Assembly: GCA_046759165.1 (NCBI GenBank)
Contig: JBHIBS010000021.1
Coordinates: 1-28,014, forward strand
Direction of reading: 5' to 3'
From: a bacterium
GTDB lineage: Bacteria > UBA6262 > WVXT01
DNA: 28,014 bases
This document shows, one piece after another, positions 1 through 18,101 of the stretch (the stretch's first letter is position 1; each line of letters opens with the position of its first letter). Under the pieces are notes generated by a model that was given only the letters and a program-made list of their open reading frames with translations, did no database searches and was not told where the DNA came from. The translations under genes were made by a program, and so were the position numbers.

Positions 1-1537
1 TCTTCTCACTAATCAATTTCTGAGAATCCTGAGCACAGGCAAAAAGAAGTTCTTGGGAATGGATAACCCGTGGTAAGGTAGAAGCATATTCAACTACTTT
101 AGGCACATCAACCGTAGCCGCAATATTAATTCCACAACGGCAAACAAAAACACCTATTCGTATTGGCTCTCCCCGCAGGTCAAATTCCTGAGGTAATTCT
201 TCCTTTATCTCTTTTATTGGCAGTTCAGTCAATAAGGAAGAAGCTGCAGATGCGGCACCGCTCGCTTGCATTACTGTTTCAGGAATATCCTTGGGACCAG
301 AAAAAGTCCCAGCAACAAATATACCTGGTCGAGAAATCGCTACTGGCGTGAAAGAAGATGATTTAGCGAATCCAGATTCATTTAGTTCTATATTAAGCTT
401 ATCTGCCATTTCTTTAATTTTAGCTGTAGATACTAATCCCACTGAAAGAACCACAAGGTCGAATTCTTCTTTGTTTAGACTTCCTTCATCAGTATTATAT
501 TGAATAATTAAATTTTCCTTAATTTGCTCAATTTCTACTGATGAGATACGAGCATGAACAAAACGGGTATGGTAATCATTTTTTGCCCGGTCAATAAATT
601 TATCAAAATCTTTACCAAAAGCACGAATATCCATGTAAAATATTGTTGTCTCAACACCGGGAAGATGCTCCCGTATAATTACTGAATCTTTAGCCGCCTG
701 CATACAACAGATGCTTGAACAATATTCATTGCCCATTTGCATATCCCGCGAACCGACACATTGAATAAATGCTATTTTCTTGGGCTCTTTTCCATCTGAA
801 GGACGTTTGATATGACCCTGGGTGGGTCCAGAAGCACTTAAAATTCTTTCAAATTCAATACTGGTCAAAACATTAGGGAAAGTTTTATAACCATATTCAT
901 CCTTTAATGCCGCATCAAATTCTTCTGACCCTGAGGTGACAATCACACTCCCCACTTCAATATCAATATCTTCTTCTTTCTGGTTAAAATCTATAGCATT
1001 TGCTTCACAGAATTTCTCGCAGATTTTACATTTACCTCTTTGATGATAAATACAGTTGTCTTTATCCATTATTGGTAGAGCAGGAACAGCTTGCGGAAAA
1101 GGAATTCTAATACACTTTGTTTTGCTTAGACCCTTATTATATTCATCTGGTATTTTCACCGGACATTTGTCCATACAAATACCACAACCGGTACATTTTT
1201 CTTCATTAATATAACGCGGTTTTTTCAAGATTTTCGCTCGAAAGTTAGGTGCTTCGCCATTTAAACTCTTTAGCTCAGCATTAGTAATAATCTTAATATA
1301 AGGATGTGCACCGGCTTCTACTAATTTAGGGGAAAGAATACACATCGCACAATCATTTGTGGGAAAGGTTTTATCCAATTGAGCCATTCTACCGCCGATA
1401 CTCGGACCTTTTTCTAATAAATATACTTCAATACACATTTCAGCTAAATCTAAAGAAGCCTGAATGCCAGCAATTCCACCACCCAGGACTAAAACTTTTT
1501 TATAACTGGTTAATTGGTTAATTGGTATATTACTCAC
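1..1537 (-). CDS. hdrA: HdrA-like flavoprotein, double-module type; partial, continues beyond the left edge
   Basis: Not in the ORF track (no stop in window). Manual translation from GTG at 1537 gives MSNIPINQLTSYKKVLVLGGGIAGIQASLDLA, DKTFPTNDCAMCILSPK, CTGCGICMDKCP, PFPQAVP, EFERILSASGP, QCVGSRD, YCSSICCM, GPKDIPETV and RIGVFVCRCGINIA. About 512 codons are visible. Confidence 0.93.
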   Translation of the reverse strand, partial: MSNIPINQLTSYKKVLVLGGGIAGIQASLDLAEMCIEVYLLEKGPSIGGRMAQLDKTFPTNDCAMCILSPKLVEAGAHPYIKIITNAELKSLNGEAPNFRAKILKKPRYINEEKCTGCGICMDKCPVKIPDEYNKGLSKTKCIRIPFPQAVPALPIMDKDNCIYHQRGKCKICEKFCEANAIDFNQKEEDIDIEVGSVIVTSGSEEFDAALKDEYGYKTFPNVLTSIEFERILSASGPTQGHIKRPSDGKEPKKIAFIQCVGSRDMQMGNEYCSSICCMQAAKDSVIIREHLPGVETTIFYMDIRAFGKDFDKFIDRAKNDYHTRFVHARISSVEIEQIKENLIIQYNTDEGSLNKEEFDLVVLSVGLVSTAKIKEMADKLNIELNESGFAKSSSFTPVAISRPGIFVAGTFSGPKDIPETVMQASGAASAASSLLTELPIKEIKEELPQEFDLRGEPIRIGVFVCRCGINIAATVDVPKVVEYASTLPRVIHSQELLFACAQDSQKLISEK

Positions 1538-4677: not shown

Positions 4678-5088
4678 CTAACTTCTAACTGGATTTGGTC
4701 CTTTACTTTTTATCTTCTCCACCATCTCTTTTATTGTCTCAGCAAATCGTTGTCCTTCACTGGCACTAATCCAGCGAAGCCAAACACGATCTTCCTCCAG
4801 GCCTAATTCAGATAAGATTTTCTTCAGTACCGCTACTCTACGACGTACCTTATAATTACCGTTGGTGTAGTGACAATCTCCTGGATGACAACCACCAATC
4901 AGTACACCATCAGCTCCTTCTAATAAAGATCTGAATACATATAAAGAGTCAAGAGCACCACTACACATCAAGCGTATCACTCGTACATTAGTGGGATACT
5001 GAATCCGTGAAGTTCCTGCTAAATCTGCACCAGCATAGGAACACCAGTTACATAAAAAAGCAATAATTTTGGGTTCAAATTCTGCCAT
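4678..5088 (-). CDS. mvhD: MvhD/FlpD [2Fe-2S] adaptor subunit
   Basis: FLCNWCSYAGAD, RLMCSG, GGCHPGDCHY, WISASEG. Confidence 0.95.
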   Translation of the reverse strand: MAEFEPKIIAFLCNWCSYAGADLAGTSRIQYPTNVRVIRLMCSGALDSLYVFRSLLEGADGVLIGGCHPGDCHYTNGNYKVRRRVAVLKKILSELGLEEDRVWLRWISASEGQRFAETIKEMVEKIKSKGPNPVRS

Positions 5089-5301: not shown

Positions 5302-5708
5302 TTTTCTGTCTCCTTTTCAAAGATACGAGATAGAAAGGCTATTCCCTCGTCAAGCCCTAATCGGCATTCTTCCGAGCTCTTACCAGTGGCCTGAATTTTG
5401 ATTTCCCATTCCCAACCAATGTTGTTATCTTCATTTAAGTTATATTTCTTCTCAATAATGAAAGCAAACTCTTTATTTACAGTTGCCCTTTTCCTTTGTC
5501 TCAGAATTTCTTGAGCAAATGATAGCCATGCTATAAGATTTTGAGGTTCGTCTTTTATTTCAAAAATAACGTTTGCAACTGAATAACCGTATTGTCTAAC
5601 AGCCGATTCCTCGGGATGACCTTCACAACAGCTAAAAGTTTCTATGTATGGGATTTTGTTCATAGCCTCGATTAAAGGCTTCATAGCGTCGTCAATACCT
5701 TTAGACAT
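5292..5708 (-). CDS. Hypothetical protein with N-terminal TFSCCEGH motif
   Basis: Co-oriented ORF overlapping the ferredoxin start; AAGGA SD upstream; family unassigned. Confidence 0.75.
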   Translation of the reverse strand: MSKGIDDAMKPLIEAMNKIPYIETFSCCEGHPEESAVRQYGYSVANVIFEIKDEPQNLIAWLSFAQEILRQRKRATVNKEFAFIIEKKYNLNEDNNIGWEWEIKIQATGKSSEECRLGLDEGIAFLSRIFEKETEKWR

Positions 5709-5726
5709 TTTATTTTGTCCTTTAAA

Positions 5727-5972
5727 TTATTTTTCTCTTTTTATTATTATCTGCCAGTCGAGCTCATTTAATTTATCAACACCTAATATTCTCTGACCTT
5801 CATCCTTAAAGTTATGAGGAATATTCTTGGCAGCAGGAGCATGATCCACAATCACTCTAAGAATTTGGCCACTTTCCATTTTTGCCAAAGTCTTTTTTGC
5901 TTTTACCCACGGGAAAGGACATACTTCTCCTTTTAGATTGATAGTCTTGTCAATTTTAATTTCTTCTGTCAT
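5727..5972 (-). CDS. tusA: TusA/SirA-family sulfur carrier
   Basis: 81 aa with LKGEVCPFP (CPxP motif) and GQILRVIVDH. Confidence 0.9.
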   Translation of the reverse strand: MTEEIKIDKTINLKGEVCPFPWVKAKKTLAKMESGQILRVIVDHAPAAKNIPHNFKDEGQRILGVDKLNELDWQIIIKREK

Positions 5973-5986
5973 AAAAATTATCCTTT

Positions 5987-6340
5987 CTAAAAACTAATAA
6001 CCCGCTTACTATCTTTAATTGATTTAGCTAAGTCCATCATAGTCGAAATCTTAATACCTTCTACTAAATCTTCTTGCGTTATACCTTTAGCATTAAGACA
6101 TGTTCCACAAGCATTTACTTTGACATCCATAGTGATCAAGTCTTTAATTTTAGCGGCCAAGTTTAATTCTTTTAATCCTTCCACTTGCTGTTGTCCTTTT
6201 TTCCCTATTAGCACTCCATCATCAAGTAAAAATATTTCCACCTCTATGTCTACTCCCAACATACCCCCGGCTATTCTTAAGGCATTCCATGTTTTCATGC
6301 TTGAATTTCCTTCGTTAATTATTATGGTTATTTTCTCCAT
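5987..6340 (-). CDS. DsrE/DsrF-family protein
   Basis: 117 aa; NALRIA, IFLLDDGV, ACGTC, VISF C-terminus; GGAGG SD upstream. Confidence 0.88.
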   Translation of the reverse strand: MEKITIIINEGNSSMKTWNALRIAGGMLGVDIEVEIFLLDDGVLIGKKGQQQVEGLKELNLAAKIKDLITMDVKVNACGTCLNAKGITQEDLVEGIKISTMMDLAKSIKDSKRVISF

Positions 6341-6385: not shown

Positions 6386-9300
6386 CTACAGTAAAGCATC
6401 TACTGCTTGCAGTAGTTGCTTTTTCTCGAATCCATATTGTTGACTCGCACCATTAGGGCAACTGGCAACACAAACACCACAACCCTGGCATAAGAGTTCT
6501 ATCACTTTGGCTTTAGTCGTTTCTTCATCTATTTCCCGTGCTTCATAAGGACATACATCTACACAAATCCCACATCCAGCACATAACCTCTCAATCACAC
6601 GCACTGTTCTTCCTGTAGCCTGAATTTTATCCTTAGAAAGAAGTGTAGCAGCTCTTCCCGCAGCTGCCCAGGCTTGAGATATTGTTTCATCAACAAATTT
6701 AGGTGAATGAGCCAACCCAGCAAGAAAGGTCCCATCGGTAGAAAAATCTACAGGACGAAGTTTTATATGTGCCTCCAAAAAGAATTTATCTTCGTTGAGA
6801 GGAACTTTTAGCAGTTTAGTTAATTCCCCATTTTCATTGCCCTGTACAATTCCTGTGCTCAACACTAAAATGTCAGGATTGATCTCAATTCTCTCATTCA
6901 AAATTGGGTCAAACACAGTAACTTGTAGTGTGTTTTGTGTTGTGCGTTTTGCGTTGTCTGGTGGCTGTATTTTTACTTCTGGTTTGCTCTCTAGCTCATA
7001 ACGAATAAAAGTTACACCTTCTTCTCTTGCTTTTTGATAATATTCTTCTTTAAATCCATAGGTTCGAATATCCCGGTAAAGAACAAAAATATTTATATTT
7101 GGATTAATCTCTTTAATTTTTAAAGCATTTTTAATCGCCTGTGAACAACAAACCCGACTACAATAAAGGTCGTCGCCTTCACGAGAACCAACACATTGAA
7201 TCATCACAATGTTTCGCAGCTCGTTGGTCGTAGTTCGCAATTCCTCATTTACAATTTTTTGTTCTAATTCTCGTTGGGTGATGATTCGTTCATCTTGACC
7301 ATAAAAATATTCTGAAGTTTTTCTTTCTTCTGCTCCGGTAGCTACAATCACAATACCATGTTCAAGTTCGTAGTTCGCTGTTCGTTGTTCGTTGTTCGTA
7401 TTTGTGATTATGGATTCGGTTTCTATGGTTGTTTTATAATTACCTACATAACCACCAAATTCAATAATTTTTGCATTCTTATATATATGAATATTTTTAT
7501 TGCTTTCCACCTTTTCAATCATCTCTTTGAGCAATGCCTGAGGATTGGCTCCGTTCAGAGAAAAATAAAGATGACGGAGATTACCACCAAGTTCTTTCTC
7601 CTTTTCCACTAAATAAACTTCAAAACCCTGTTCGGCTAAAGACAAACTGGCTGTCATGCCAGCAATCCCCCCTCCAATCACTAATCCTTTTTTATTTACA
7701 GGAAATGCTGACCGAGTTAATGGTTTTAACAAGCAAGCTTTGGCTACTGCCATAGCAACCAATTCTTTAGCTTTTCTTGTCGCTTCCTGTTTCTCATACA
7801 TATGCACCCAGGAACAGTGTTCCCTGGTACTGACAAATTCTAACAGGTATGGATTAAGACCCGCTTCTCTAATGGTATCTTGAAATAAAGGTTCGTGAGT
7901 GCGGGGAGTACAGGCGGCAATAACAATTCTATTCAACTGATGTTCTTTAATCCGTTCCTTAATTATCCCTTGTGTATCTTGTGAACAGGTATAGAGATTG
8001 TCTTCGCAATAGGCAACATTAGGTAAGGCTTTGGTAAACTTCACCACTTCTTTCACATCCACTACACCACCAATATTGATTCCACAATGGCAGACAAATA
8101 CACCAATTCGTGGCTCCTTCTCGCTTACGTCTATCTGTTCAGGATAGGTTTTTTCTTCCACTAAACTTCCCCGCGCTTCAGATAAAAGGGCAGATACTTT
8201 CCCGGCAGTTGCTGAGCCCTGGATAATTGTTTCAGGTATATCTTTTGGTTCGGCAATCGCTCCGCAAACATAAATTCCCTGGCGGGCGATACCATCACTT
8301 TCTTGGATGGTATTTTCTTTAAAAAATTCGTAAGTTTCTATAAAATTATATTTGTTTAATCTCAGACCCAATATTTCCTTCAATTTTTTTATCTGGGGTG
8401 GGGGGACTAGACCTGTAGATAGGACAACTAAGTCGTATATTTCTTTCCCAAATTTTCCATTATCCGTAACAAACTTGATCAAAAGATCATCACTGCCATT
8501 TGCTCTTTCTACCTGAGGAGAACGGCAGGGGATATAATTCACCCCATATTCAGTCTTTGCTCTTTCGTAATAACGGTCGAACCCTTTACCAAAAGCCCGA
8601 ATATCCATATAATAAATATCGGTCACTAAATCTTTACCTGCATGTTCTTTAGCAACAACTGCTTCTTTTATGGCATACATACAGCAGACTGCTGAACAAT
8701 AAGGATTGCACTCAACATCTCGTGAGCCGACACATTGAATGAAAGCAATTCTTTTTGGTTCTTTTTTATCCGAAGGTCTTTGTAGATGACCACGAAACGG
8801 ACCGGAAGCAGAGAGAATTCGTTCAAACTCTGGAGAGGTAAGAACATTGGGAAACTCACCATAGCCATATTCTAATCTCCGCAGAGGATTGAACCGGTCA
8901 TAGCCAGCTCCCACGATTACTGCACCTACATTTATTTCTTCAATTTGCTCCTTTTGGTCAAAATCTATTGCTTCCGGTCCACAGAATTCTTTGCATACTT
9001 GACAGACTCCACGACTCAAATAGATACAGCGTTCTTTATCGATAACTGGTGTATTGGGTACGGCTTGAGGATAGAGAATATTGATTACCGGGCGTGGACC
9101 CACACCCCAGTCAAACTCAGAAGGAAGAATTCTTATCTCTTCAGAACAGTTATTCTTTGCTTTCATACTACCCATAGGGCAAATGAATTCGCAGGCGCCA
9201 CAACCCAAACAGATGGGGGAATTTTGTTCAAAAGGTGGAATCACCTTCCGTTTAATGCCACGCTGGGCAAATCCAACGATTGCAGCACCCATTTTTTCTT

Positions 9301-9700
9301 TGCACATACGAACACAGAGTCCACAAAGAATACAGTCCTCATTCTTTTTGGGAAACCGATTTTCTTTCACACCTAATTCTTCAGCTACTTCTTTGATTTT
9401 TTCTGAATCTGGACAGCGGGCTAATAAAAGTTCAACCATTATCTTTCTTGTTTTTATCACCCTTTCCGTATCCGTATGCACTACCAATCCATCACAACAG
9501 GGATAAAGACAAGAAGCCTGAATTTTCGATTTACCACCCTCACTTATCTCCACAAGACAGAGTCGGCAGGCGCCGTACGGCGTTAAAGCTTTGTGATAAC
9601 ACAGAGTTGGTATCTTTATTCCCAGTTCTTGGGCCGCTTCAAGTACAGTTGTTCCTTCTTTTACACTAACTTGTTGATTATTAATAGTTAAATTTATCAT
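6386..9700 (-). CDS. Fusion of NuoG/HydA-type N-terminal Fe-S domains with an N-terminally truncated double-module HdrA
   Basis: N-terminus: IPTLCY, GACRLCLVE, ASC, CILCGLCVRMC, CLGCGACEFICP. Then HdrA from YPQAVP onward: EFERILSASGP, QCVGSRD, RIGVFVCHCG, ACTPRTHE, GGGIAG, YCSRVCC, and two C-terminal CxxCxxCxxxCP motifs. Confidence 0.92.
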   Translation of the reverse strand: MINLTINNQQVSVKEGTTVLEAAQELGIKIPTLCYHKALTPYGACRLCLVEISEGGKSKIQASCLYPCCDGLVVHTDTERVIKTRKIMVELLLARCPDSEKIKEVAEELGVKENRFPKKNEDCILCGLCVRMCKEKMGAAIVGFAQRGIKRKVIPPFEQNSPICLGCGACEFICPMGSMKAKNNCSEEIRILPSEFDWGVGPRPVINILYPQAVPNTPVIDKERCIYLSRGVCQVCKEFCGPEAIDFDQKEQIEEINVGAVIVGAGYDRFNPLRRLEYGYGEFPNVLTSPEFERILSASGPFRGHLQRPSDKKEPKRIAFIQCVGSRDVECNPYCSAVCCMYAIKEAVVAKEHAGKDLVTDIYYMDIRAFGKGFDRYYERAKTEYGVNYIPCRSPQVERANGSDDLLIKFVTDNGKFGKEIYDLVVLSTGLVPPPQIKKLKEILGLRLNKYNFIETYEFFKENTIQESDGIARQGIYVCGAIAEPKDIPETIIQGSATAGKVSALLSEARGSLVEEKTYPEQIDVSEKEPRIGVFVCHCGINIGGVVDVKEVVKFTKALPNVAYCEDNLYTCSQDTQGIIKERIKEHQLNRIVIAACTPRTHEPLFQDTIREAGLNPYLLEFVSTREHCSWVHMYEKQEATRKAKELVAMAVAKACLLKPLTRSAFPVNKKGLVIGGGIAGMTASLSLAEQGFEVYLVEKEKELGGNLRHLYFSLNGANPQALLKEMIEKVESNKNIHIYKNAKIIEFGGYVGNYKTTIETESIITNTNNEQRTANYELEHGIVIVATGAEERKTSEYFYGQDERIITQRELEQKIVNEELRTTTNELRNIVMIQCVGSREGDDLYCSRVCCSQAIKNALKIKEINPNINIFVLYRDIRTYGFKEEYYQKAREEGVTFIRYELESKPEVKIQPPDNAKRTTQNTLQVTVFDPILNERIEINPDILVLSTGIVQGNENGELTKLLKVPLNEDKFFLEAHIKLRPVDFSTDGTFLAGLAHSPKFVDETISQAWAAAGRAATLLSKDKIQATGRTVRVIERLCAGCGICVDVCPYEAREIDEETTKAKVIELLCQGCGVCVASCPNGASQQYGFEKKQLLQAVDALL

Positions 9701-10116
9701 TCGCTTTTTTTATGTTCAAAGATAAACTTTATCTCTGGATGGGCTACTGTTAAAATCTTCATAGTCTCTTTCATATTTCCTAAAGGTCTTCTATCCGGAT
9801 GACTTAACTTAAAAGTAGCCATAATCGTTGTCCCTTTACCAACTTCTGATTCTATCTCTAATTTACCTCCACTTTCCTCAGCCGCTTGAGCCAGAAGGGG
9901 AAGTCCTAATCCTACTTTCTTGGTAGTCTTGGTAGTAAAAAACGGATCTAAAGATTTCTTAATCATCTCCTCATCCATTCCCTTACCATCATCCTTGATT
10001 TTAACTGTCAATAGATCTTCTTTTATATTTTCAATGATGCTTATTTCAATCTTTTTAGCCTGCGCAACAATAGAATTTTCTACTATATCTAAAATATGTA
10101 AAGATAAATCCTCCAT
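9697..10116 (-). CDS. Stand-alone HATPase_c (GHKL) kinase-like protein of the hydrogenase-operon type
   Basis: LHILDIVENSI, DDGKGM, DPFFTTK, GLGLPLL, GKGT. Confidence 0.88.
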   Translation of the reverse strand: MEDLSLHILDIVENSIVAQAKKIEISIIENIKEDLLTVKIKDDGKGMDEEMIKKSLDPFFTTKTTKKVGLGLPLLAQAAEESGGKLEIESEVGKGTTIMATFKLSHPDRRPLGNMKETMKILTVAHPEIKFIFEHKKSE

Positions 10117-10854
10117 CTATCGTTTAACCATTCTACCATCTCTATTCAGTAATGCTTTGCCTATTTCATCAACCGTTGCTTCTTCTATAACAAAACAAGT
10201 AACGGATCTGCCTATGTCCTCTAAATAATGTGCATCAGAAAAAGTAACCAAGGGAAAACCATAACTTTCATAATTCCTCGTTCTTAACGGGGTGCGCAGT
10301 TCATAATTCGGAGATAGTTCTAAAGCATCCAAATCTAATCCTTCGGGAATAAAGCCTAATTGACTAATAATACTGAAAGTTTCCTTATCAATATGGGAGG
10401 CAATGGCTAAACCTCCTAAACGGTGAACTAACTTTACAATCTCATCAACAGAGAGACTGGTTGCTCCTATTAATAACTTTTTATTATATCCAATTATCTT
10501 GTCATATTGATCTACAACTAATTGTTCTCCAAAAGCCTCCTGATTATTTTCACCAGATAAATTTTCATAAATGAGATTCTGTATTTCCTGTAGATTTATA
10601 TCATTAAAAAAAGCCAGAATGTGTACTTCTTCTCGAGAAGTTATTTCAAGCCCTCCTAAAACTTGTAATCCTTCTCTTTCTCCTGCCTTTTCTACTGCTT
10701 CCACATTTTCTGCTGAATTGTGGTCACATATCCCAATCACATTCAGATTCCGTTTCTTTGCCTGTTTAATTATTACTGTAGGTAACATCTTTAAATCACC
10801 ACAGGGAGAAAGACACGTATGGATATGTAAATCCACCTTAAACTCCTTTAACAT
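10117..10854 (-). CDS. PHP-domain phosphoesterase
   Basis: DLHIHTCLSPC, ICDHN, EVHIL, ASHID, SDAH. Confidence 0.9.
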   Translation of the reverse strand: MLKEFKVDLHIHTCLSPCGDLKMLPTVIIKQAKKRNLNVIGICDHNSAENVEAVEKAGEREGLQVLGGLEITSREEVHILAFFNDINLQEIQNLIYENLSGENNQEAFGEQLVVDQYDKIIGYNKKLLIGATSLSVDEIVKLVHRLGGLAIASHIDKETFSIISQLGFIPEGLDLDALELSPNYELRTPLRTRNYESYGFPLVTFSDAHYLEDIGRSVTCFVIEEATVDEIGKALLNRDGRMVKR

Positions 10855-10860
10855 TATTCT

Positions 10861-11199
10861 TCATCCAGAAATACCCAAGCTATATAATTTACCAATTAGT
10901 TCAAAAGCAGGCATCTTGCTTACCATAATTGGTATATTTTCACTTTCTGCTCTTTTAACAGTTTCTTCCTCTGGCTCTCTGCCGTTTATTATCACAATTC
11001 CAGATAACTCTTTCATACCGGCCACAGCAACAATATTTTGATGAACTTGCAGTGTAATCCAGAGATCACCCTTGTTGGTATTGGCAATCACATCGCTTAG
11101 AAGATCACTAGCATACCCGCTATTTATCTCCCTATCCAGTTTATTAGCTCCACATCTGATTTCTAAATTTAACTTCTCGATTATTTCTTTCAATTTCAT
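10861..11199 (-). CDS. DRTGG-domain protein (HPr kinase N-terminal-like)
   Basis: GYASDLLSDV, LWITLQ. Start placed at MKLKEI (GAGGTGG SD); the ORF track starts at 11223. Confidence 0.82.
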   Translation of the reverse strand: MKLKEIIEKLNLEIRCGANKLDREINSGYASDLLSDVIANTNKGDLWITLQVHQNIVAVAGMKELSGIVIINGREPEEETVKRAESENIPIMVSKMPAFELIGKLYSLGISG

Positions 11200-11223
11200 T
11201 TTCCACCTCGCTTTGCTCGACAT

Positions 11224-12141
11224 TTAACCAGTTTTCATGTCAATGCTAATTTCTAAATGTGTTCCTTTCCCTATGGTTGAAGTGATATCCATCTTATCAG
11301 CACATTTCTGAATATTATTCAATCCCATCCCAGCTCCAAAACCAAGTTCTCTGACCCAATCCGGAGCAGTTGAATAACCAGGTTCAAGAGCTTTTTCTAT
11401 ATCAGGAATACCCGGACCAGAATCTTTCACATCAATATGAATTTTATCAGGTTGCACCGCAACTACCATCTCTCCGCCTTCAGTGTAAATGAGTAGATTC
11501 ATCTCTGCTTCATAAGATGAAATAGCTGTTCGACGGACAATATCTGGATGAATACCAAGCCGTTTCAAAGTTCTTTTAAGTGCGCTGGTAACCTCGCCTG
11601 CCTGGTTAAAATCTTTACCTTTCACACAATATTGAAAAATTAAAGTGGTCTTATCTGCTATAATATCTTCAAAGATATGGCTTGCTCGGTAACGATGAAT
11701 CTCTTCTTCGTGATAATCAATCTCTAACTCTCGAAGTAATCCCTCAATAATATCACCTTTAGTGATTATTCCCGCCAGTCTCCCGTCTTTCCTGTCAATT
11801 ACTGGAAAACGGCCAAAGCCAGTTTGCTCAAGTTTGCTAACTGCATGAACTAAAGGTTCATCTGCATACAAAGTTTTAACGTCTGGAGTCATCTTTTTCT
11901 CTATTAGGCAATCTTTTCCTCCTTCTGCCAGCCACTTAATAAAATCTTCAATACTTATGATTCCTACTAATTTATCTTCGTTCATTACAGGAGTTCCTGA
12001 TATACGATTGGAACGCAATATCTCTCTTAATTCACTCATCAGCATCTGGGGTTTAACAGTAATTACATTCTGTTTCATTACATCACTTACTTTTAATTCA
12101 TATATTAATTCCTCAACTTTAGTAAACTTTTTTTCGTTCAT
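11224..12141 (-). CDS. CBS-pair domain fused to an RsbT/anti-sigma-type Ser/Thr kinase (HATPase) domain
   Basis: CBS motifs (ISGTPV, LVGIIS, FGRFPV, GIITKGD), then YEAEMN, DSGPGIPDI, GYST, GFGAGMGL. Start uncertain (12141, 12180 or 12225). Confidence 0.85.
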   Translation of the reverse strand: MNEKKFTKVEELIYELKVSDVMKQNVITVKPQMLMSELREILRSNRISGTPVMNEDKLVGIISIEDFIKWLAEGGKDCLIEKKMTPDVKTLYADEPLVHAVSKLEQTGFGRFPVIDRKDGRLAGIITKGDIIEGLLRELEIDYHEEEIHRYRASHIFEDIIADKTTLIFQYCVKGKDFNQAGEVTSALKRTLKRLGIHPDIVRRTAISSYEAEMNLLIYTEGGEMVVAVQPDKIHIDVKDSGPGIPDIEKALEPGYSTAPDWVRELGFGAGMGLNNIQKCADKMDITSTIGKGTHLEISIDMKTG

Positions 12142-12143
12142 TT

Positions 12144-12173
12144 GGATTAGCTCCGATAAATCGGAGCTACTCC
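12144..12173. repeat. REP-like hairpin capped by GGAGTAGC (minus strand)
   Basis: ggattagctccgat-aa-atcggagctactcc; overlaps the upstream gene's TAG stop. Confidence 0.65.
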
Positions 12174-12520
12174 TTTTCATCGCAACCAGGTAATCCTCTT
12201 TTGTACAATCGACCACAGGATTCATACATAGAGAATTTAGTCGCCAAAAGAGGCATCTCTTTCTCCCTGGCTAATTTTATTGTATCATTTTGAGGTTTTT
12301 TACCGCGAACAAAACAGATGGCAACTACCTCAGACATTTCTGCGGTACGAATAACCTGAGGGTTGGTTAGTCCAGTCAGTAATAAAGAGTTTGACTTAAT
12401 AAATGCTAATACATCACTCATCAAATCAGAACCACAAGCCATCTTTATTTCTTTATCTAAGTAATCACCTCCAACGATTACTTCTGCTTCAAGAATCTTT
12501 TTTATCTCTTTTAGTTTCAT
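12167..12520 (-). CDS. DRTGG-domain protein
   Basis: ACGSDLMSDVLAF, LLTGLTN, FVRGK. Start placed at MKLKEI; the longer track ORF runs into a repeat element. Confidence 0.85.
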   Translation of the reverse strand: MKLKEIKKILEAEVIVGGDYLDKEIKMACGSDLMSDVLAFIKSNSLLLTGLTNPQVIRTAEMSEVVAICFVRGKKPQNDTIKLAREKEMPLLATKFSMYESCGRLYKRGLPGCDEKE

Positions 12521-12527
12521 TGTTCCT

Positions 12528-12579
12528 TGGAGTAGCAGACCTGGGTCTGCGTGGACGCAAAACAAGTTTCGCTACTCCA
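12528..12579. repeat. Inverted REP-like doublet (GTAG type)
   Basis: tggagtagc...gctactcca termini enclosing hairpins gcagac-ctgg-gtctgc and gcaaaac-aa-gtttcgc. Confidence 0.7.
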
Positions 12580-12617
12580 GACCTTAATTTCAGTGAAGTT
12601 AGTGTTCTCAGTGGTTT

Positions 12618-14408
12618 CTATTCTATTATCACTGCATCAAACTTACAGATTTCAAAACAGACACCGCATTTGATACATTTTTCTTGTTCAATTCTATGTG
12701 GTTTTTTTCTCTCTCCTGTAATTGCCTCCTGAGGACAGTTCTTTAAACAAAGAAGACATCCAGTACATTTTCTCTCATCAATTAGATATTTTATCAGAGT
12801 TGTACACACTCCAGCTGGACATTTCTTTTCCTTTATATGGGCTTCGTATTCACTCTTAAAATAACGGGTAGTACTCAAAACAGGATTGGGTGCAGTTCCT
12901 CCCAGAGCACAGAGAGAACCATCTTTTACTGCTTGACCTAATTCTTCAAGTAATTCAATATCAGATTCTTTTCCTTTTCCTTCACATATATTGGTTAACA
13001 TTTGATACATCGCCTCAATTCCTTCCCGACAGGAAGTGCACTTGCCGCAGGATTCACCTCTTAAGAAATCAAGGAAATATTTTGCTATATCAACCATACA
13101 GGTATCTTCATCCATAACAATCATTCCCCCAGAACCCATGATTGATCCTGCTTCAGTCAATCGCTCATAATCTATAGGTAAATCGAGCAATTCTTCTGGA
13201 ATACATCCACCCGAAGGACCACCAGTCTGTACTGCTTTAAACTTCTTATCATTAGGAGTTCCACCACCAATATCAAAGACGATTTCACGCATAGTAATAC
13301 CCATTGGAACTTCTACCAGGCCGGTATTTTTCACTTTACCAACAAGAGAGAATACCTTGGTTCCTTTACTGGTTTCTGTCCCTATACTGGAAAACCATTT
13401 GGCTCCCCGGTTAATTATCTGGGGAACATTAGCCCATGTCTCTACATTATTGATATTAGTCGGTTTGCCATTGTATCCCGATTGTGCTGGAAATGGCGGC
13501 CTTATCCTGGGTTCAGGCGTTCTTCCTTCCAGTGAACCAATTAAAGAAGTTTCCTCCCCAGAGACAAATGCCCCTGCTCCTCGCTGTACAGTAATATCAA
13601 AATTAAAACCAGTGCCAAGTATATCCTCCCCTAATAAACCATACTCCCGTGCCTGTTCAATAGCATTTATTAATCTCTTTAATGCCAGAGGATATTCATT
13701 TCTGATATATACAAAACCATGGGATGCTCCGATGGCATAAGCGCCAATTATCATTCCTTCTAAGACAGAATGTGGGTCAGATTCAATAATAGACCTATCC
13801 ATAAATGCCCCTGGATCACCTTCATCCCCATTGCAAATTATGTATTTTTCTTCACCGGGAGAGTTTCTACAGAATTCCCATTTCCTACCAGTAGGAAAAC
13901 CAGCCCCTCCTCTGCCACGTAAACCAGAGTCCTTGGTTTCTTTTATTATCTGTTCTGGAGTCATAGAAGTAAGTGCCTTTACCAATGCCCTGTATCCACC
14001 ACGAGCAATAGATTCATCTATTTTTTCAGGGTCTATTAACCCACGATTCCTTAAAGCAATTAACTGCTGTTTGGAGAAAAAATCGATATCGCTCATCTTA
14101 GGTATGGGCATTTCTTTTTCTGGAGGGGTATACATCAATTTTTTTACTGGTCTTCCTTTCAAGAAATGTTCCTCTACCAGATGAGGAATATCTTTTTCGG
14201 TAAGCATCTGATAAAAAATTCCTTCTGGCTGGACTACCATGATTGGTCCCTGAGCACAAAAACCATTGCAGCCAGTCATTACAATCTGTATTTCATCCTG
14301 AAGGTTATGCTTTTTAATTTCTACTTCAAGTGCTTCTTTTATCTTAAAAGATTTATTTGAGACACAACCAGTGCCTGCACAAACCATCAGGTGAGTTCTA
14401 TATGCCAT
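12618..14408 (-). CDS. NuoF/HydB-type FMN/NAD-binding subunit with extra N-terminal [2Fe-2S] and C-terminal 2x[4Fe-4S]
   Basis: CAGTGC...CNGFC, GLRGRGGAGFPTG, DEGDPGAFMDR, GEETSL, NNVET, GGPSGG, ESCGKCTSCREG, HIKEKKCPAGVC, two CxxCxxCxxxC. Confidence 0.95.
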   Translation of the reverse strand: MAYRTHLMVCAGTGCVSNKSFKIKEALEVEIKKHNLQDEIQIVMTGCNGFCAQGPIMVVQPEGIFYQMLTEKDIPHLVEEHFLKGRPVKKLMYTPPEKEMPIPKMSDIDFFSKQQLIALRNRGLIDPEKIDESIARGGYRALVKALTSMTPEQIIKETKDSGLRGRGGAGFPTGRKWEFCRNSPGEEKYIICNGDEGDPGAFMDRSIIESDPHSVLEGMIIGAYAIGASHGFVYIRNEYPLALKRLINAIEQAREYGLLGEDILGTGFNFDITVQRGAGAFVSGEETSLIGSLEGRTPEPRIRPPFPAQSGYNGKPTNINNVETWANVPQIINRGAKWFSSIGTETSKGTKVFSLVGKVKNTGLVEVPMGITMREIVFDIGGGTPNDKKFKAVQTGGPSGGCIPEELLDLPIDYERLTEAGSIMGSGGMIVMDEDTCMVDIAKYFLDFLRGESCGKCTSCREGIEAMYQMLTNICEGKGKESDIELLEELGQAVKDGSLCALGGTAPNPVLSTTRYFKSEYEAHIKEKKCPAGVCTTLIKYLIDERKCTGCLLCLKNCPQEAITGERKKPHRIEQEKCIKCGVCFEICKFDAVIIE

Positions 14409-14418
14409 TCAACACTCC

Positions 14419-14802
14419 TTATGATACCCGCTCACTTCCTATAGCCAGAGCGTGCTCAGTAACCATCTTGCCACCTATAACATGTTCAGAAAATATTTTT
14501 TCAACTTTTTTTTCAGTTAAATCAACATATTTAACCGGTGTTTCTCCCTTCAGTTCTACTGTAGCCATAGGCTCGCGGCTACAAAGCCCAGCACATCCTG
14601 AAGTGGTAAGAATAACATCTTTAACTTTGGCCTTTTCTATCCGGGCTAAAAAAGCGCTCATTATTTTCCGTGCACCAGCAGCTATACCACAAGTTCCCAT
14701 ATGCACTGTAATCTTAGCTCGTCCAGCTCCTTCACGTAGTATGGTCACTGCTCTCATTTTTTCACTGATTTTTTCTAAATCCTCTGGCTTTAACTTCGCC
14801 AT
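14419..14802 (-). CDS. Thioredoxin-like [2Fe-2S] ferredoxin (HndB/HydD-like)
   Basis: VHMGTCGIAAGAR and SGCAGLCSREP. Confidence 0.9.
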   Translation of the reverse strand: MAKLKPEDLEKISEKMRAVTILREGAGRAKITVHMGTCGIAAGARKIMSAFLARIEKAKVKDVILTTSGCAGLCSREPMATVELKGETPVKYVDLTEKKVEKIFSEHVIGGKMVTEHALAIGSERVS

Positions 14803-14848
14803 CTTACATCCCCTTTAAGAAACCAGCAATAAAATATCAACGAAAATC

Positions 14849-14907
14849 TCTGGAGTCCTTGCGAAAGCAAGGTCGATTACATCCCTCCCTTTCGGGAGGA
14901 CTCCAGA
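14849..14907. repeat. Symmetric double-hairpin element
   Basis: tctggagt-[ccttgc gaaa gcaagg]-11 nt-[cctccc tttc gggagg]-actccaga. Confidence 0.75.
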
Positions 14908-14983
14908 CCCTTCCACCTTAAGAAATTCCTCAGCGATGAACCAGATGTCCTTTTTCTTCTGGTTTCTCCACTCTGGTTACTGG

Positions 14984-15901
14984 TTACTTTGTTTTGTATT
15001 TCTCGATTATTTTGGGAATTTTTGCTTGGTTCATTCTTCCGTATAGGTCTTCATTGACCGTGACTACCGGAGCAAGGCCACAACAGCCCAAACAGCGCAC
15101 TGCTTCTAAACTGAAATTTAGATCAGCGGTAGTCTCGCCAGATTTAATTCCCAAATCACGTTCAAGCCTTTCTAAGATCTTCTGACCACCTCTTACATGG
15201 CAGGCTGTACCGAGACAAACACTGATGATATATTTTCCTCTGGGAATAAGACTGAAGGCATTATAAAAAGTGGCTATATTATATACTTGACTTAAAGGAA
15301 CATTTAATTTACTGGCTACAAACTTAAGCATATTCTCTGGTAAATAGCGATATTCTATATTAATATCCTGTAGGATAGGTACTAGGGATTCTATTTTAGG
15401 TTTATTTTCACTTAGAATTCTGTTAATTTTTTCTTTATCTTCTTTTTCGAATTTTATTTCATCTTCCTTTCTTTCCTGTAAATACGGTATGTTTCTTACC
15501 GGACAATTATTTACACAAACACCGCAGCCGGTACATTTCTCTTCATTTACAAATCTCGGCTTTTTCTTTAAAGTAATAACAAAATTGCCTGGCTCACCCT
15601 GTATCTTTTCGAATTCAGAATAAGTAATCAGTTGAATATTGGGATGCCTCCCGGTATCCACAAGTTTCGGTGAAAGAAGACACATTGCGCAGTCATTAGT
15701 AGGAAATGTTTTATCCAGCTGAGCCATCACTCCGCCAATTGAAGGTTTTTCTTCTACTAAATAGACCTTAAACCCTATCTCCGCTAAATCAAGTGAGGCC
15801 TGAATACCTGCTATTCCACCGCCAACAACTGCCACCGCACCAATTTTCGTTGTGCGGTGGAGATTGTGTTTTGTGCGTAACTCATTCTTAGTACCTTCCA
15901 T
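14984..15901 (-). CDS. Fusion of the HdrA N-terminal segment with NuoE/HydC
   Basis: VVGGGIAG, DKTFPTNDCAMCLLSPK, CTGCGVCVNNCP, followed by LVPILQDI, ATFYNAF, CLGTACHVRG, RCLGCCGLAP. Confidence 0.93.
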   Translation of the reverse strand: MEGTKNELRTKHNLHRTTKIGAVAVVGGGIAGIQASLDLAEIGFKVYLVEEKPSIGGVMAQLDKTFPTNDCAMCLLSPKLVDTGRHPNIQLITYSEFEKIQGEPGNFVITLKKKPRFVNEEKCTGCGVCVNNCPVRNIPYLQERKEDEIKFEKEDKEKINRILSENKPKIESLVPILQDINIEYRYLPENMLKFVASKLNVPLSQVYNIATFYNAFSLIPRGKYIISVCLGTACHVRGGQKILERLERDLGIKSGETTADLNFSLEAVRCLGCCGLAPVVTVNEDLYGRMNQAKIPKIIEKYKTK

Positions 15902-16091: not shown

Positions 16092-18101
16092 CTATACGAC
16101 TACATCGATCATAGAGAATATTTGTTCTTTAGTAAAATTCTTAAGTTGTGTCGCTCCATTGGGACAAATCGCCGCGCAGGCACCACAACCCTGGCAGAGT
16201 ATTTCTTTCACAGTAGAAATCTTCTTTTTCTCATCAATTTCCCTTGCCTCATAAGAACAGGCATCAACACAGAGACCACAACCACTACAGATTTCTTCAT
16301 CAACAACTGCAATAACCGGATCGTGACTTAATTTATCCTGGCATAAAAGTCCTAAAACCTTACAAGCTGATCCAGAAGCCTGGGCTACTGTAGACGGGAT
16401 ATCTTTTGGTGCCTGGCAGGCACCGGCTAAGAAAATTCCCATAGTAGTCGTTTCTAGTGGTCGTAATTTTGGATGTACTTCAGAGAAGAAACCATGTTCA
16501 TCATAGGGAATCCGTAACTTTTTGGCTAACTCAATTGCTGAAGGATGAGCACAAATAGCTGAGGCTAAAACCACCATATCGGCAGCAATCTCTATTTGTG
16601 TCCCTGAAAGTGTATCTGACCCGCGAACTATGACCTTTCCATCTTTTTCAAATATTCTTGATACTCTACCCTTGAGATATACTGCTCCATCCTCTTCTAC
16701 TGCCCGCGCCCAGAATTCTTCATATCCTTTTCCCGGTGCACGAACATCAATATAAAAGACATAAGCCTGACCATCATGGACTTTATGTTTATAAAGCATC
16801 GCATGTTTTGCCGTGTACATACAACAGATGCTTGAACAGTAAGGAATACCTTTAGAACGGTCGCGTGAGCCAACGCATTGAATAAAAACCACTGACCTGG
16901 GAATTTTTCCATCTGATGGCCTTCTTATCTCTCCACGGGTAGGTCCAGTAGCAGATTGCAAACGTTCGAACTGTATACTATTAATAACGTCTTTAAATCT
17001 ACCATAACCATATTCACCATAAAAATCTCTTCCCAGTTGTTTATATCCAGTAGATACTACTATTACACCCACTTTTTCTTCAATTATTTCGTCCTGTTGT
17101 TCAAAATCTATTGCTTCTGCTTCACAAAACTTTTGACAAATTTTGCATTTACCTGTTTTATAAAAAGTGCAGTTTTCTCGATCAATAACCGGAATATTAG
17201 GTACCGCCTGAGGGAAGGGGATATAGACAGCTTTTCTCATACCCATTCCCTCTTCGTATTCACTGAGGATATTTTTCCTGGGACATTTTTCCTGACAGAT
17301 TCCACAGCCAGTACATTTATCTTCTATTATCGAACGTGCTTTTTTTCTTATTTTTACCTTGAAATCGCCTACTAATCCTGAAATTTCTTCGATTTCTGAG
17401 TAAGTATAAATTTTAATCTTTGGGCTCTGGGAAACTTCAACTGTGCGGGGGGTAAGAATACAAGCCGCACAATCAAGCGTGGGGAAGGTTTCGGCAAGTT
17501 TAGTCATATGACCGCCAATGTAAGGTTCTTTTTCTACCAAAATTACCGGATATCCTCCTTGAGCAATATCTAAGGCAACCTGTATCCCGGCAATCCCTGC
17601 GCCAATTACCAGTGCCTTTTTCTCTACCTCAGAATGAAAAACCTCAAGAGCTTGATCACCTTTCAACTTCTCTAAAATCGAGGAGATAATCTGAACACCT
17701 TTTTCAGTAGCTTTTTCTTTTTCATCTTGGTGTACCCATGAACATTGTTCGCGAATATTGGCAATCTCCATGCAATAAGGATTCAAACCTGCCTTAAGTC
17801 CGGCATTGCGAAAAGTTGTCTCGTGCATTCTTGGAGAACAGGCAGCAACAATTACTCCATTTAATTTTTTCTCTTTAATAGTTTTAGTAATTAGTTCCTG
17901 CCCAGGATTTGAACACATATATTTATAATCAATTGAATGCACTACACCTGGTATCTTCCCAAACTCATCTGCTACTTTTTTCACATCTACTACACCAGCA
18001 ATATTTATCCCACAATGACAGATAAAAATTCCAACACGTGGTAGACGGTTTGTATTTTGTGGTGTTTGATGCTTAGTATTTGGTATTTGATGAGCAGCCA
18101 T
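16092..18101 (-). CDS. hdrA: Heterodisulfide reductase subunit A (canonical single-module length)
   Basis: RVGIFICHCG, ACSPRMHE, NIREQCSWVH, GAGIAG, TFPTLDCAAC, QFERL, QCVGSRD, CSSICCMYTAK, PKDIP, C-terminal ferredoxin. Confidence 0.96.
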   Translation of the reverse strand: MAAHQIPNTKHQTPQNTNRLPRVGIFICHCGINIAGVVDVKKVADEFGKIPGVVHSIDYKYMCSNPGQELITKTIKEKKLNGVIVAACSPRMHETTFRNAGLKAGLNPYCMEIANIREQCSWVHQDEKEKATEKGVQIISSILEKLKGDQALEVFHSEVEKKALVIGAGIAGIQVALDIAQGGYPVILVEKEPYIGGHMTKLAETFPTLDCAACILTPRTVEVSQSPKIKIYTYSEIEEISGLVGDFKVKIRKKARSIIEDKCTGCGICQEKCPRKNILSEYEEGMGMRKAVYIPFPQAVPNIPVIDRENCTFYKTGKCKICQKFCEAEAIDFEQQDEIIEEKVGVIVVSTGYKQLGRDFYGEYGYGRFKDVINSIQFERLQSATGPTRGEIRRPSDGKIPRSVVFIQCVGSRDRSKGIPYCSSICCMYTAKHAMLYKHKVHDGQAYVFYIDVRAPGKGYEEFWARAVEEDGAVYLKGRVSRIFEKDGKVIVRGSDTLSGTQIEIAADMVVLASAICAHPSAIELAKKLRIPYDEHGFFSEVHPKLRPLETTTMGIFLAGACQAPKDIPSTVAQASGSACKVLGLLCQDKLSHDPVIAVVDEEICSGCGLCVDACSYEAREIDEKKKISTVKEILCQGCGACAAICPNGATQLKNFTKEQIFSMIDVVV

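Follow-up and report, generated by a model that had tools for sequence, protein, structure and literature searches.

Can a gene for the flavoprotein HdrA be divided between two polypeptides, each fused to a subunit of another redox module, and still serve a working enzyme? The question is raised by a 28,014-nucleotide (nt) stretch of bacterial DNA, referred to as the window, which is one entire contig (JBHIBS010000021.1) of a 1.89-Mb genome in 165 contigs that is 92% complete (GCA_046759165.1; lineage UBA6262, WVXT01). The two pieces of this hdrA gene were located in a 305-residue (aa) HdrA-N::NuoE protein and a 1104-aa NuoG-N::HdrA-C protein. We conclude, with a probability of roughly 0.8, that the locus is a functional operon encoding a soluble redox complex of several subunits, whose tandem HdrA is split within the inserted ferredoxin domain of its first flavin adenine dinucleotide (FAD) module. 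Domain content, collinearity, conservation and co-occurrence are what the analysis shows directly.

The 305-aa protein was found to combine an HdrA start with a complete NuoE-type subunit. Pfam placed FAD/NAD Rossmann matches at residues 23–60 and one 4Fe-4S motif at residues 118–136, while residues 25–138 aligned by BLASTP with residues 165–278 of the canonical 669-aa HdrA of the window, gap-free and at 52% identity. This fragment contains the GxGxxG of the FAD-binding beta-alpha-beta fold (G27, G29, G32) and the motif DKTFPTNDC71-A-M-C74. It also includes the CxxCxxCxxxCP sequence (C123, C126, C129, C133) that forms the first cysteine motif in the inserted ferredoxin domain. Two marks of HdrA membership, namely the FAD-binding GxGxxG and the TFPTxDC with its Cys197-type ligand, are both present in this chain. 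The distance from the CP motif to the LxPILQ of NuoE was 36–38 residues in 26 of 26 homologues. The NuoE part possesses the invariant [2Fe-2S] site expected of a BfuC subunit (C229, C234, C270, C274), and its best solved relative was HydC (8a6t_C), with residues 157–303 matching chain positions 15–161 (E 1.9e-49).

In the 1104-aa protein, Pfam identified Fer2_4 at residues 1–78 and a 4Fe-4S dicluster (Fer4_21) at residues 120–177, followed by HdrA-like parts. The NuoG-like start presents invariant cysteines for a [2Fe-2S] site (C34, C45, C48, C64) and two [4Fe-4S] motifs (C123–C133 and C164–C174), the latter with the CPxG ending of the NuoG type. It therefore has what is expected of BfuA, an N-terminal iron-sulfur (Fe-S) domain passing electrons to a catalytic part. 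The best solved match was a 247-aa NuoG-like protein (9mqx_A; residues 2–183 on chain positions 5–187, E 5e-44), and HydA1 (8a6t_A) was matched with an E-value of 1.9e-30. NuoG and HydA carry a His-ligated cluster motif, which was not evident in residues 85–100 of the 1104-aa protein. From the NuoG-type CP motif to the start of HdrA-C, 18 residues were counted in 22 of the 26 homologues, 19 in three and 21 in one.

HdrA resumes at residue 193 of this chain, where residues 193–512 match residues 279–592 of the 669-aa HdrA (BLASTP). The four cysteines C225, C233, C236 and C240 of this fragment belong to the second half of the inserted ferredoxin domain, and the fragment also supplies the remainder of the first FAD domain, which is thioredoxin reductase (TrxR)-like. 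The TrxR-like domain of HdrA is marked by a [4Fe-4S] motif of the form CxGSRD...CSxxCC; here it reads C323-VGSRD...C335-S-x-x-C339-C340 and is repeated at C836...C847, C851, C852, all of these cysteines being invariant. A second HdrA-like module follows residue 525, which makes the split gene a tandem (BamE-type) HdrA. Its residues 530–763 and 771–1104 align by BLASTP with residues 21–255 and 334–669 of the 669-aa HdrA, and it comprises an N-terminal Fe-S domain (CHCG...), a second FAD domain with neither the inserted ferredoxin nor the TFPTxDC cysteine, and a C-terminal 2x[4Fe-4S] domain. Overall, the best solved match of the 1104-aa protein was 5odc_A (E 2.6e-174). No curated NCBIfam model reached its cut-off on either fusion protein: the HdrA2 model gave 799.3 bits on the 1104-aa chain and 169.3 on the 305-aa chain (cut-off 1100), and the HdrA model gave 602.1 bits (cut-off 1400). 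The inserted 2x[4Fe-4S] ferredoxin domain is whole in neither chain, with motif 1 on the 305-aa and motif 2 on the 1104-aa protein, so that it could form only in trans.

The two halves abut at HdrA residues 278|279, with zero overlap and zero gap. An earlier note on this DNA, made from the letters alone, had proposed an hdrA gene split in its ferredoxin domain with each half fused to a cassette subunit; Pfam and BLASTP bear this out, and the switch points it gave as ~15485 and ~9125 were placed by BLASTP at ~15487 and ~9124. It had also claimed that the joined halves are collinear with two intact paralogues. Collinearity was confirmed on the 669-aa HdrA, on a paralogue in the window (positions 2–1537), and on 18 unsplit tandem HdrAs of other genomes, with the correction that the copy at 2–1537 is cut at the contig end and is itself an unsplit tandem. 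Residues 14–136 of the 305-aa protein match residues 6–128 of this paralogue at 63% identity, and residues 160–583 of the 1104-aa protein match its residues 111–512 at 45%. Across the junction the paralogue reads CPVKIPDEYNKG, with CPVKIP-DEYNKG at the place of CPVRNIP and SEFDWG in the split chains.

Contigs of other public sequencing runs bridged both junctions with no or few differences: at ~9124 these were X2 (8958–10155), X3 (8802–9810), X4 (8866–9165) and X6 (9083–9292), the last two from other studies, and at ~15487 X2 again (15182–15901). Given these contigs and the same architecture in 26 independent assemblies, the junctions are not an assembly artefact. Between 20401 and 2, only short gaps separate the genes, which are all encoded on the minus strand, and the 1104-aa gene starts with a 4-nt overlap with the preceding gene; this tight spacing was counted in favour of a working operon.

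The 305-aa chain has a single CxxCxxCxxxC motif and no partner motif; three more motifs are found within residues 1–240 of the 1104-aa chain. The resulting total of 16 cysteines would provide for four clusters, those of a NuoG-type di-cluster domain and those of the HdrA inserted ferredoxin domain. The C164–C174 motif was assigned to the NuoG part on account of its CPxG ending and the match to HydA and 9mqx_A. A complex of residues 180–525 of the 1104-aa protein, FAD, two 4Fe-4S clusters and residues 1–150 of the 305-aa protein was then modelled with a 26-row alignment per chain. The model obtained ipSAE scores of 0.92, 0.91 and 0.92, compared with 0.05 for the best of three controls, the partner predicted local distance difference test (pLDDT) value was at least 81, and contacts agreed by at least 91% between runs. 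In calibration, the mark that this model reached was attained by 58 of the 80 solved complexes tried and by 2 of the 110 mismatched pairs; it is only roughly valid for the present model, which used its own alignments and ligands. The lowest-error contacts (A, 305-aa chain; B, 1104-aa chain) were B258–264/A22–26 in the Rossmann sheet, B220 and B244–247/A117–119 in the ferredoxin domain, and B488–491/A30 at the FAD site. In the predicted interface, both the Rossmann sheet and the ferredoxin domain are put together again. The earlier note had named such a model as a check, and the outcome supports its proposal of an FAD site and a 2x[4Fe-4S] domain assembled in trans. On this modelled binding, the two chains would rejoin as one FAD site and one 2x[4Fe-4S] ferredoxin domain.

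The architecture is conserved well beyond this genome. A search over 5.8 billion proteins showed that relatives of the 305-aa protein in the 120 best clusters share 62–85% identity over 89–98% of its length, all with the NuoE family together with FAD or Fer4 families. Scanning one genome per species yielded 80 loci (numbered with the prefix L), of which 30 encode HdrA-N and NuoE in one stop-free open reading frame (ORF) with a start codon. Downstream of it, 26 of the 30 have a single ORF with NuoG-N, HdrA-C and the second module; in the other four, the contig ends 751–4120 nt past the first gene, inside the cassette. The predicted co-occurrence of both fusions with the same breakpoint was thus upheld. 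Two loci with the first fusion (L002, L036) were left out of the tally, as they have no start by the start-codon rule and their contigs end early, and in L037 the NuoG-N::HdrA-C ORF is broken once more. Seen from the other gene, a NuoG-N::HdrA-C ORF was present in 35 loci and an HdrA-N piece lay upstream in 35 of 35, fused to NuoE in 26 and with an in-frame TGA or as a separate piece in nine.

Record titles assign these loci to about 17 phylum-level groups, among them Bacillota, Cloacimonadota, Stahlbacteria, Spirochaetota, Ignavibacteriota, Planctomycetota, Bacteroidota, Fibrobacterota, Acidobacteriota, Gemmatimonadota, TA06, Sumerlaeia, Thermodesulfobacteriota and Thermoplasmatota. Over 26 aligned pairs with 46–58% identity to the window proteins, the GxGxxG, the DKTFPTNDC-x-M-C and every Fe-S cysteine were invariant, which indicates purifying selection. 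Both ORFs are open as well, in agreement with the earlier argument that open, motif-complete frames speak against a dead disruption. The distribution is patchy: the fusion was found in 0 of 8 genomes of the window's own family (83–96% complete) and, among 40 relatives searched, in two distant ones only. The genes were met under the source names 'NuoE' and 'FAD-dependent oxidoreductase', which bears on annotation.

HdrA-N can also be encoded apart from NuoE. At the same codon, the second Cys of C-A-M-C, 11 Thermodesulfobacteriota-type loci have an in-frame TGA (TFPTNDCAM-TGA; L030, L031, L041, L042, L032–L035, L038, L039, L043), so that selenocysteine is a candidate for this position of the CxxC pair. 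The corresponding pair in BamE of class II benzoyl-CoA reductase (BCRII) is described as a redox-active disulfide in a preprint on this enzyme (10.64898/2026.04.10.717634). The frame continues into NuoE in four of the 11 loci; in the other seven, HdrA-N stops just past the CP motif and NuoE is a gene of its own (L032–L035, L038, L039, L043). Five further loci have HdrA-N and NuoE in different frames (L044, L056, L066, L078, L080), and a stand-alone HdrA N-fragment of ~130 residues therefore appears to exist in 12 loci. Wherever the contig extends far enough, the loci with HdrA-N apart keep the NuoG-N::HdrA-C gene. This makes the split, and not the NuoE fusion, the constant feature, and the N-fragment is expected to work in trans without being fused to NuoE.

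The loop that is split here was found in two other states. Unsplit tandem HdrAs of ~1000–1070 aa were represented by 22 ORFs in 18 loci (Bathyarchaeota, Methanoperedens, Thermoplasmatota, Chloroflexota and others), and single chains of ~1490–1580 aa with a ~400–490-residue insert at the same loop by nine ORFs in eight loci. In L060 the insert spans residues 161–550 and consists of Fer4_20 and Pyr_redox_2 (Pfam), i.e., it is NfnB/GltD-like. After the junction, this insert form is 79% identical to the split forms L022 and L019, and the insert form L069 is ~74% like the Acidobacteria split forms, whereas both are only 46–49% identical to the Chloroflexota insert forms. The QmoC-like and MvhD neighbours of L060 and L069 are likewise 72–86% identical to those of L019 and L022, and a FastTree phylogeny of the post-junction region required at least four changes of the 'split' label on starred branches. 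This closeness, the shared flanks and the label changes point to an exchanged occupant, and the loop may be read as a socket. The earlier picture of a cassette inside hdrA holds as a collinear split; a single insertion is too simple, since the loop is empty, NfnB-like or Bfu-split in near backbones.

A single origin of the split was not supported; as the tree comes from FastTree alone, with neither an approximately unbiased (AU) test nor an outgroup, no order of events is claimed. With 48% identity to the GltD-like NuoF tail of L001 and L003 and 41–45% identity to the Chloroflexota inserts, the cis insert of L060 has values too near each other for a decision on its origin. The tail itself was observed in L001:6660-10214, where C-terminal Fer4_20 and Pyr_redox_2 (GltD/NfnB-like; Pfam) replace the 2x[4Fe-4S] tail of NuoF. 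Similarly long NuoF ORFs occur in L003, L005, L020, L023 and L029, the Pfam assignment having been made for L001 only.

The flanks of these genes give insight into their partners. An MvhD gene starts within 2.5 kb downstream of the NuoG-N::HdrA-C gene in 27 of 35 split loci; of the eight without it, six have at most 518 nt of contig left, and L011 and L040 have room and gave no match. The gene is likewise present behind nearly all of the unsplit forms and behind five insert forms. HdrC and HdrB lie directly upstream of the HdrA-N::NuoE gene in L001, L010, L023, L029 and L040, and in 10 other loci a ~385–404-aa protein is encoded upstream. The one at L019:8827-9990 (~388 aa, with an HdrC-like Fe-S start) matched qmoC over its full length (E 1.7e-48), at 165.9 bits and below the NCBIfam cut-off of 300. 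Its homologues were detected by tblastn in nine further loci (L003, L005, L009, L013, L016, L022, L025–L027), as well as in L060, L069 and L048. This suggests that the QmoC-like versions of the complex are membrane-anchored and quinone-linked. The general frame, with MvhD on the downstream side and HdrBC or a QmoC-like gene on the upstream side, is one that the split loci have in common with BCRII.

In the wiring that we prefer, the three-chain NADH/ferredoxin module of the Bfu/HydBC type would be, topologically, a giant insertion into one loop of the inserted ferredoxin domain. Bifurcation is presumably the task of the first FAD module in the tandem HdrA. Electrons would pass between the Bfu module and the HdrA flavin by way of the inserted ferredoxin domain, since both tethers are short and fixed in length. 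We hold this route at about even odds, with the fixed short linkers and the cis NfnB-like analogue in its favour. The high-potential electron would go to HdrBC in this genome and to the QmoC-like membrane subunit in other phyla. Overall, two bifurcation modules in series would catalyse the reduction of a disulfide or persulfide (of quinone in other phyla), or the reverse reaction, linked to NADH and ferredoxin. In this genome, HdrBC and the neighbouring DsrE and TusA suggest a disulfide or persulfide carried on a protein as the substrate, and the QmoC-like partner points to quinone elsewhere. Wiring, direction and substrate are in each case what we infer.

Several points weigh against this reading. 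The conserved MvhD port is left without an encoded partner in the preferred wiring; in BCRII, according to the accessible part of 10.64898/2026.04.10.717634, the NuoG-like BamI feeds the C-terminal ferredoxin domain and the MvhD-like BamF rather than the inserted ferredoxin domain. Alignment to the 18 unsplit tandems puts C164–C174 of the 1104-aa protein on the same motif as C123–C133 of the 305-aa protein, and another pairing of motifs into clusters is possible. The score of the predicted complex may reflect memory of solved single-chain HdrA (5odc and others); the model indicates by likeness that the fold could be rebuilt, the binding of these particular chains being only modelled. The phylogeny was built with FastTree only, and the absence of the fusion from the window's own family fits transfer and is of no help on function.

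The conserved MvhD port favours the strongest alternative, which we rate below the preferred wiring. It keeps the same trans-assembly and adopts a BCRII-like wiring, in which the NuoG-like clusters would deliver electrons to the C-terminal ferredoxin domain and MvhD and from there to the bifurcating FAD. The inserted ferredoxin domain would remain the low-potential exit, leading either to free ferredoxin or back to the NuoF ferredoxin site, and the fusions would be assembly tethers only. The route I3 to E1/E2 (C-terminal ferredoxin) to BamF to the bifurcating FAD is the precedent, as given in the accessible part of 10.64898/2026.04.10.717634. MvhD stands next to the fusion gene in the 27 of 35 loci noted above, the C-terminal 2x[4Fe-4S] cysteines are invariant, and every encoded part would be used. 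However, both tethers are attached at the inserted ferredoxin domain and are short and constant across phyla, which is a better fit to neighbouring domains, and the cis NfnB-like NAD(P)H domain in the same loop of near relatives cannot reach the distant port.

It is very doubtful that the HdrA pieces no longer cooperate, so that HdrA-N, with its CxxC and one Fe-S motif, would be a redox-active extension of NuoE and the 1104-aa protein would use its second FAD site only. The GxGxxG and the FAD-contacting parts of both pieces are invariant, the lone 4-Cys motif of the 305-aa chain has no partner in its own chain, the pieces always co-occur, and the free-standing HdrA-N variants have no NuoE to extend. 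To this is added the ipSAE of 0.92 against 0.05 for the best control, even though the second HdrA module has its own GxGxxG and Fe-S motifs and one of the two FADs of BamE is described as structural (10.64898/2026.04.10.717634). Least credible of all is a mobile cassette that killed hdrA or must be excised from it, for which a truncated recombinase-like ORF ~10 kb off (25889–26458) and the lack of the fusion in 8 genomes of the same family could be cited, and against which stand the in-frame fusion of the halves to cassette genes, motifs invariant over about 17 phylum-level groups, the absence of direct repeats at the two junctions (which weighs against an excisable element without excluding one), the absence of a base-composition step across the region and of a recombinase inside the cassette, and listed contig joints that never link ~9124 to ~15487.

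The features of the locus are listed in Table 1. In the direction of transcription, the genes encode Rex, HdrC, HdrB, the 669-aa HdrA, the 305-aa protein, a 127-aa ferredoxin and a 596-aa NuoF/HydB-type protein, then DRTGG, CBS+HATPase, DRTGG, PHP and HATPase proteins and the 1104-aa protein, and lastly DsrE, TusA, a 138-aa protein, MvhD, FrhB-like and HdrC-like genes and a further HdrA that runs off the contig end.

Table 1. Coordinates of the split hdrA locus and neighbouring genes in the window.
Feature	Position	Strand	Basis or remark
HdrC	19629-19081	-	Pfam Fer4_8
HdrB	18971-18102	-	Pfam CCG
Canonical 669-aa HdrA	16092..18101	-	Between hdrB and the split gene; junction reference
305-aa ORF	14984-15901	-	Open; HdrA residues ~165-278 and whole NuoE/HydC
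HdrA-N fragment, residues 1-138	15488..15901	-	BLASTP to 669-aa HdrA
Linker HdrA-N to NuoE	15434..15487	-	Sequence variable, length fixed
NuoE/HydC/BfuC part	14984..15433	-	Pfam PF01257 (2Fe-2S_thioredx), residues 160-303, E 2.9e-50
127-aa thioredoxin-like [2Fe-2S] ferredoxin	14419..14802	-	Pfam PF01257, E 1.8e-05
596-aa NuoF/HydB/BfuB	12618..14408	-	Pfam
DRTGG	12565-12167	-	Pfam
CBS+HATPase	12225-11224	-	Pfam
DRTGG (second)	11223-10861	-	Pfam
PHP	10854-10117	-	Pfam
HATPase	10116-9697	-	Pfam
1104-aa ORF	6386-9700	-	Open; NuoG/HydA-type Fe-S start, HdrA from residue 279, second HdrA-like module
NuoG/HydA/BamI-like Fe-S N-terminus, residues 1-175	9176..9700	-	Pfam Fer2_4, Fer4_21
Linker NuoG-like to HdrA-C	9125..9175	-	Length near-constant
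HdrA-C fragment, residues 193-525	8126..9124	-	BLASTP to 669-aa HdrA
Second HdrA-like module, residues 526-1104	6386..8125	-	BLASTP, Pfam
DsrE-like	6340-5987	-	Pfam
TusA	5972-5727	-	Pfam
MvhD (FlpD) adaptor	4678..5088	-	Pfam PF02662, E 8.1e-54
Unsplit tandem-type HdrA paralogue	2..1537	-	Cut by contig end at residue 512; in-genome unsplit reference

The 596-aa NuoF comprises an N-terminal [2Fe-2S] thioredoxin-like domain, a flavin mononucleotide (FMN)/NADH core, SLBB, NADH_4Fe-4S and a C-terminal 2x[4Fe-4S] domain (Pfam domains at residues 4–80, 159–329, 440–524 and 541–592). Its residues 2–593 match residues 3–594 of the bifurcating NiFe-HydB (7t2r_B) over the full length (E 2.1e-257). All three parts of the HydC-HydB-HydA cassette described in the earlier note are present, and eight genes were counted between the two fusions, among them this NuoF, the 127-aa ferredoxin and the DRTGG, CBS+HATPase, DRTGG, PHP and HATPase genes. 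The proposed HydABC-type module is better described as a Bfu/HydBC-type NADH-ferredoxin module without the hydrogenase H-cluster domain, as Fe_hyd_lg_C had no Pfam match in the 1104-aa protein or the other scanned ORFs of the window. Neither the tungsten AOR family (BamB) nor BamC had a Pfam match in the 29 window ORFs scanned.

HdrC and HdrB are the probable high-potential output subunits, and MvhD is probably part of the complex. The canonical HdrA lies just upstream of the HdrA-N::NuoE fusion in L018 and L021 as well, and the 127-aa ferredoxin is an ORF of its own in many related loci. The five accessory genes between 9697 and 12565 are probably regulatory; the set is optional in the family, being present, e.g., in L004, L007, L009, L010, L013, L016 and L020 and missing, e.g., in L006, L008, L011, L012, L018 and L019. 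Where present, it was always located between the NuoF and NuoG-N::HdrA-C genes and looks like an optional regulatory insert in the cassette. The DsrE-like and TusA sulfur-carrier genes are candidate substrates or partners in this genome only. Together with a 138-aa ORF that matched neither Pfam nor NCBIfam, they occupy positions 5292–6340, downstream of the 1104-aa gene and upstream of mvhD. In L003, too, the fusion gene is followed by a DsrE-like ORF; no DsrE or TusA match appeared among the related loci listed in the domain scan.

Further observations were made in the window and genome. The downstream set at 2–5088 comprises MvhD, two FrhB/FdhB-like proteins, an HdrC-like protein, a 92-aa ORF and the unsplit tandem HdrA cut by the contig end, so that three HdrA types stand side by side on one contig. 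The gap between the 305-aa and ferredoxin genes holds a strong hairpin with 24-nt arms (14849–14907), and the 181-nt spacer after the 305-aa gene has a folding energy of -62.9 kcal/mol (z = -3.64); small indels, joints and loose ends in contigs of other runs fall exactly at this hairpin. A second NuoE homologue in the genome (G000:C16:6625-7098) is 56% identical to the NuoE part and has one in-frame TGA inside the match, and the relative G008 has an in-frame TGA within its second NuoE homologue too. At 24423–25792, a 375-aa ORF with the sigma-54 DNA-binding domain only is overlapped upstream by an 89-aa ORF without a family match, and this may be a split or frameshifted rpoN. The 189-aa ORF at 25889–26458 is the sole gene on the plus strand in this region of the window. 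Its domains are limited to Recombinase and zinc-ribbon-recombinase; large serine recombinases are usually much longer. Promoter and terminator scans of the window showed no excess over shuffled sequence (41 vs a mean of 43.8, and 13 vs 12.1) and are uninformative on operon structure, and Rfam at the gathering threshold returned only a tRNA at 27909–27981.

The closest known system is the electron module of BCRII, as set by domain content. In BamDEFGHI of Geobacter metallireducens, a HydBC/Bfu-type NADH and ferredoxin module is likewise coupled to a double HdrA. As described in the accessible parts of 10.64898/2026.04.10.717634 and PMC9304861, BamG is NuoE-like, BamH is NuoF-like and BamI is a short NuoG-like protein with one [2Fe-2S] and two [4Fe-4S] clusters, BamE is a fused HdrA dimer in which the first FAD bifurcates, BamF is MvhD-like, and BamD is HdrBC/HdrD-like. 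The window has each counterpart of BamD–I in one locus (HdrB and HdrC, the split tandem HdrA, MvhD, NuoE, NuoF and NuoG-N), as judged by domain content only, and the cluster count of BamI equals that of its NuoG-like part. In BCRII, however, the chains are all separate and BamE is one polypeptide, whereas in the window the first FAD module is split, one half being joined to the NuoE part and the other to the NuoG part. According to the same preprint, BamBC makes contact with BamE at the position of this split, and BamI docks elsewhere.

The HdrABC-MvhAGD complex of methanogens (5odc) shares with the window the TrxR-like FAD domain, both ferredoxin domains (inserted and C-terminal), the Fe-S domain at the N-terminus and the Cys197-type ligand. 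It differs in being built on a homodimer of a 650-aa HdrA with a hydrogenase partner, while the window encodes a fused, heterodimer-like tandem with complementary domain loss, plus the split, and an NADH/ferredoxin partner. In comparison with Bfu/HydABC enzymes (7t2r, 8a6t, 7q4v), NuoF has all BfuB domains, NuoE matches HydC and the NuoG part matches the HydA N-terminus. Unlike those enzymes, the BfuA counterpart of the window lacks an H-cluster, NiFe, pterin or other catalytic domain, and the 'third substrate' is an HdrA flavoprotein covalently joined to BfuA and BfuC. FlxABCD-HdrABC is an NADH-linked HdrA system with an MvhD-like adaptor, and QmoABC has HdrA-like flavoproteins on the QmoC membrane subunit. 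In these systems the NADH module is FlxA instead of the NuoEF type, and HdrA is not split. The Flx-Hdr of sulfate reducers is cited in the accessible part of PMC6037941.

The inserted-ferredoxin loop has been used as a graft site for an NAD(P)H module in fused tandem and NfnB-interrupted HdrAs, according to the accessible parts of PMC9012536 and PMC11237513, the former (Chadwick et al., 2022) mentioning an NfnB-like interruption of the inserted ferredoxin domain for the anaerobic methanotrophic archaea ANME-1. Those proteins are single chains, whereas the graft in the window is a three-chain module with the host domain spread over two polypeptides. In ANME HdrA3/4, as given in the same part of PMC9012536, the module order is the reverse of that in the window, where the Cys197-bearing module comes first. 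Tandem HdrAs, the NfnB-type interruption and the coupling of Bfu to HdrA are already in print. No description of an HdrA split over two chains fused to NuoE and NuoG parts was found in the literature searched, where an earlier mention remains possible: none appears in the accessible parts of PMC11237513, 10.1101/2024.09.26.615249, PMC9012536, PMC5736913, PMC6305446, PMC6037941 or 10.64898/2026.04.10.717634. The accessible part of Schut et al. (2022; PMC9304861) likewise describes no such fusion, and its supplementary tables may list these operons, e.g., under 'Bam'.

Taken jointly, the loop could be a modular socket into which NAD(P)H modules were plugged repeatedly and swapped among near relatives, the split form placing a second bifurcation module on the low-potential arm of HdrA; we put this tentative reading somewhat below even odds. 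The low-potential arm serves free ferredoxin in methanogen HdrA and BamBC, for benzene-ring reduction, in BCRII. If true, the arrangement would connect two bifurcating flavins in series via the low-potential branch, an undescribed wiring whose sink would be the quinone pool or a carrier of disulfide or persulfide, and which appears widespread in uncultured anaerobes of many phyla. A structure with HydBC-type and HdrA-type modules in series was first reported this year, for an aromatic-ring reductase (accessible part of 10.64898/2026.04.10.717634). The operon suggests that two-stage machines of this kind are common among anaerobes of many phyla and serve other ends, and that they may take a more intimate form, in which an FAD-binding fold and a di-cluster ferredoxin fold are each made from two polypeptides. 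It would offer a natural case of a split Rossmann FAD site, a gene set for asking how the low-potential arm of HdrA is used outside methanogens, and a comparison of the three loop states (empty, NfnB insert, Bfu split) from which the wiring between bifurcation modules could be worked out. Its recurrence across many bacterial phyla makes this layout look like a functional means of coupling two energy-splitting modules.

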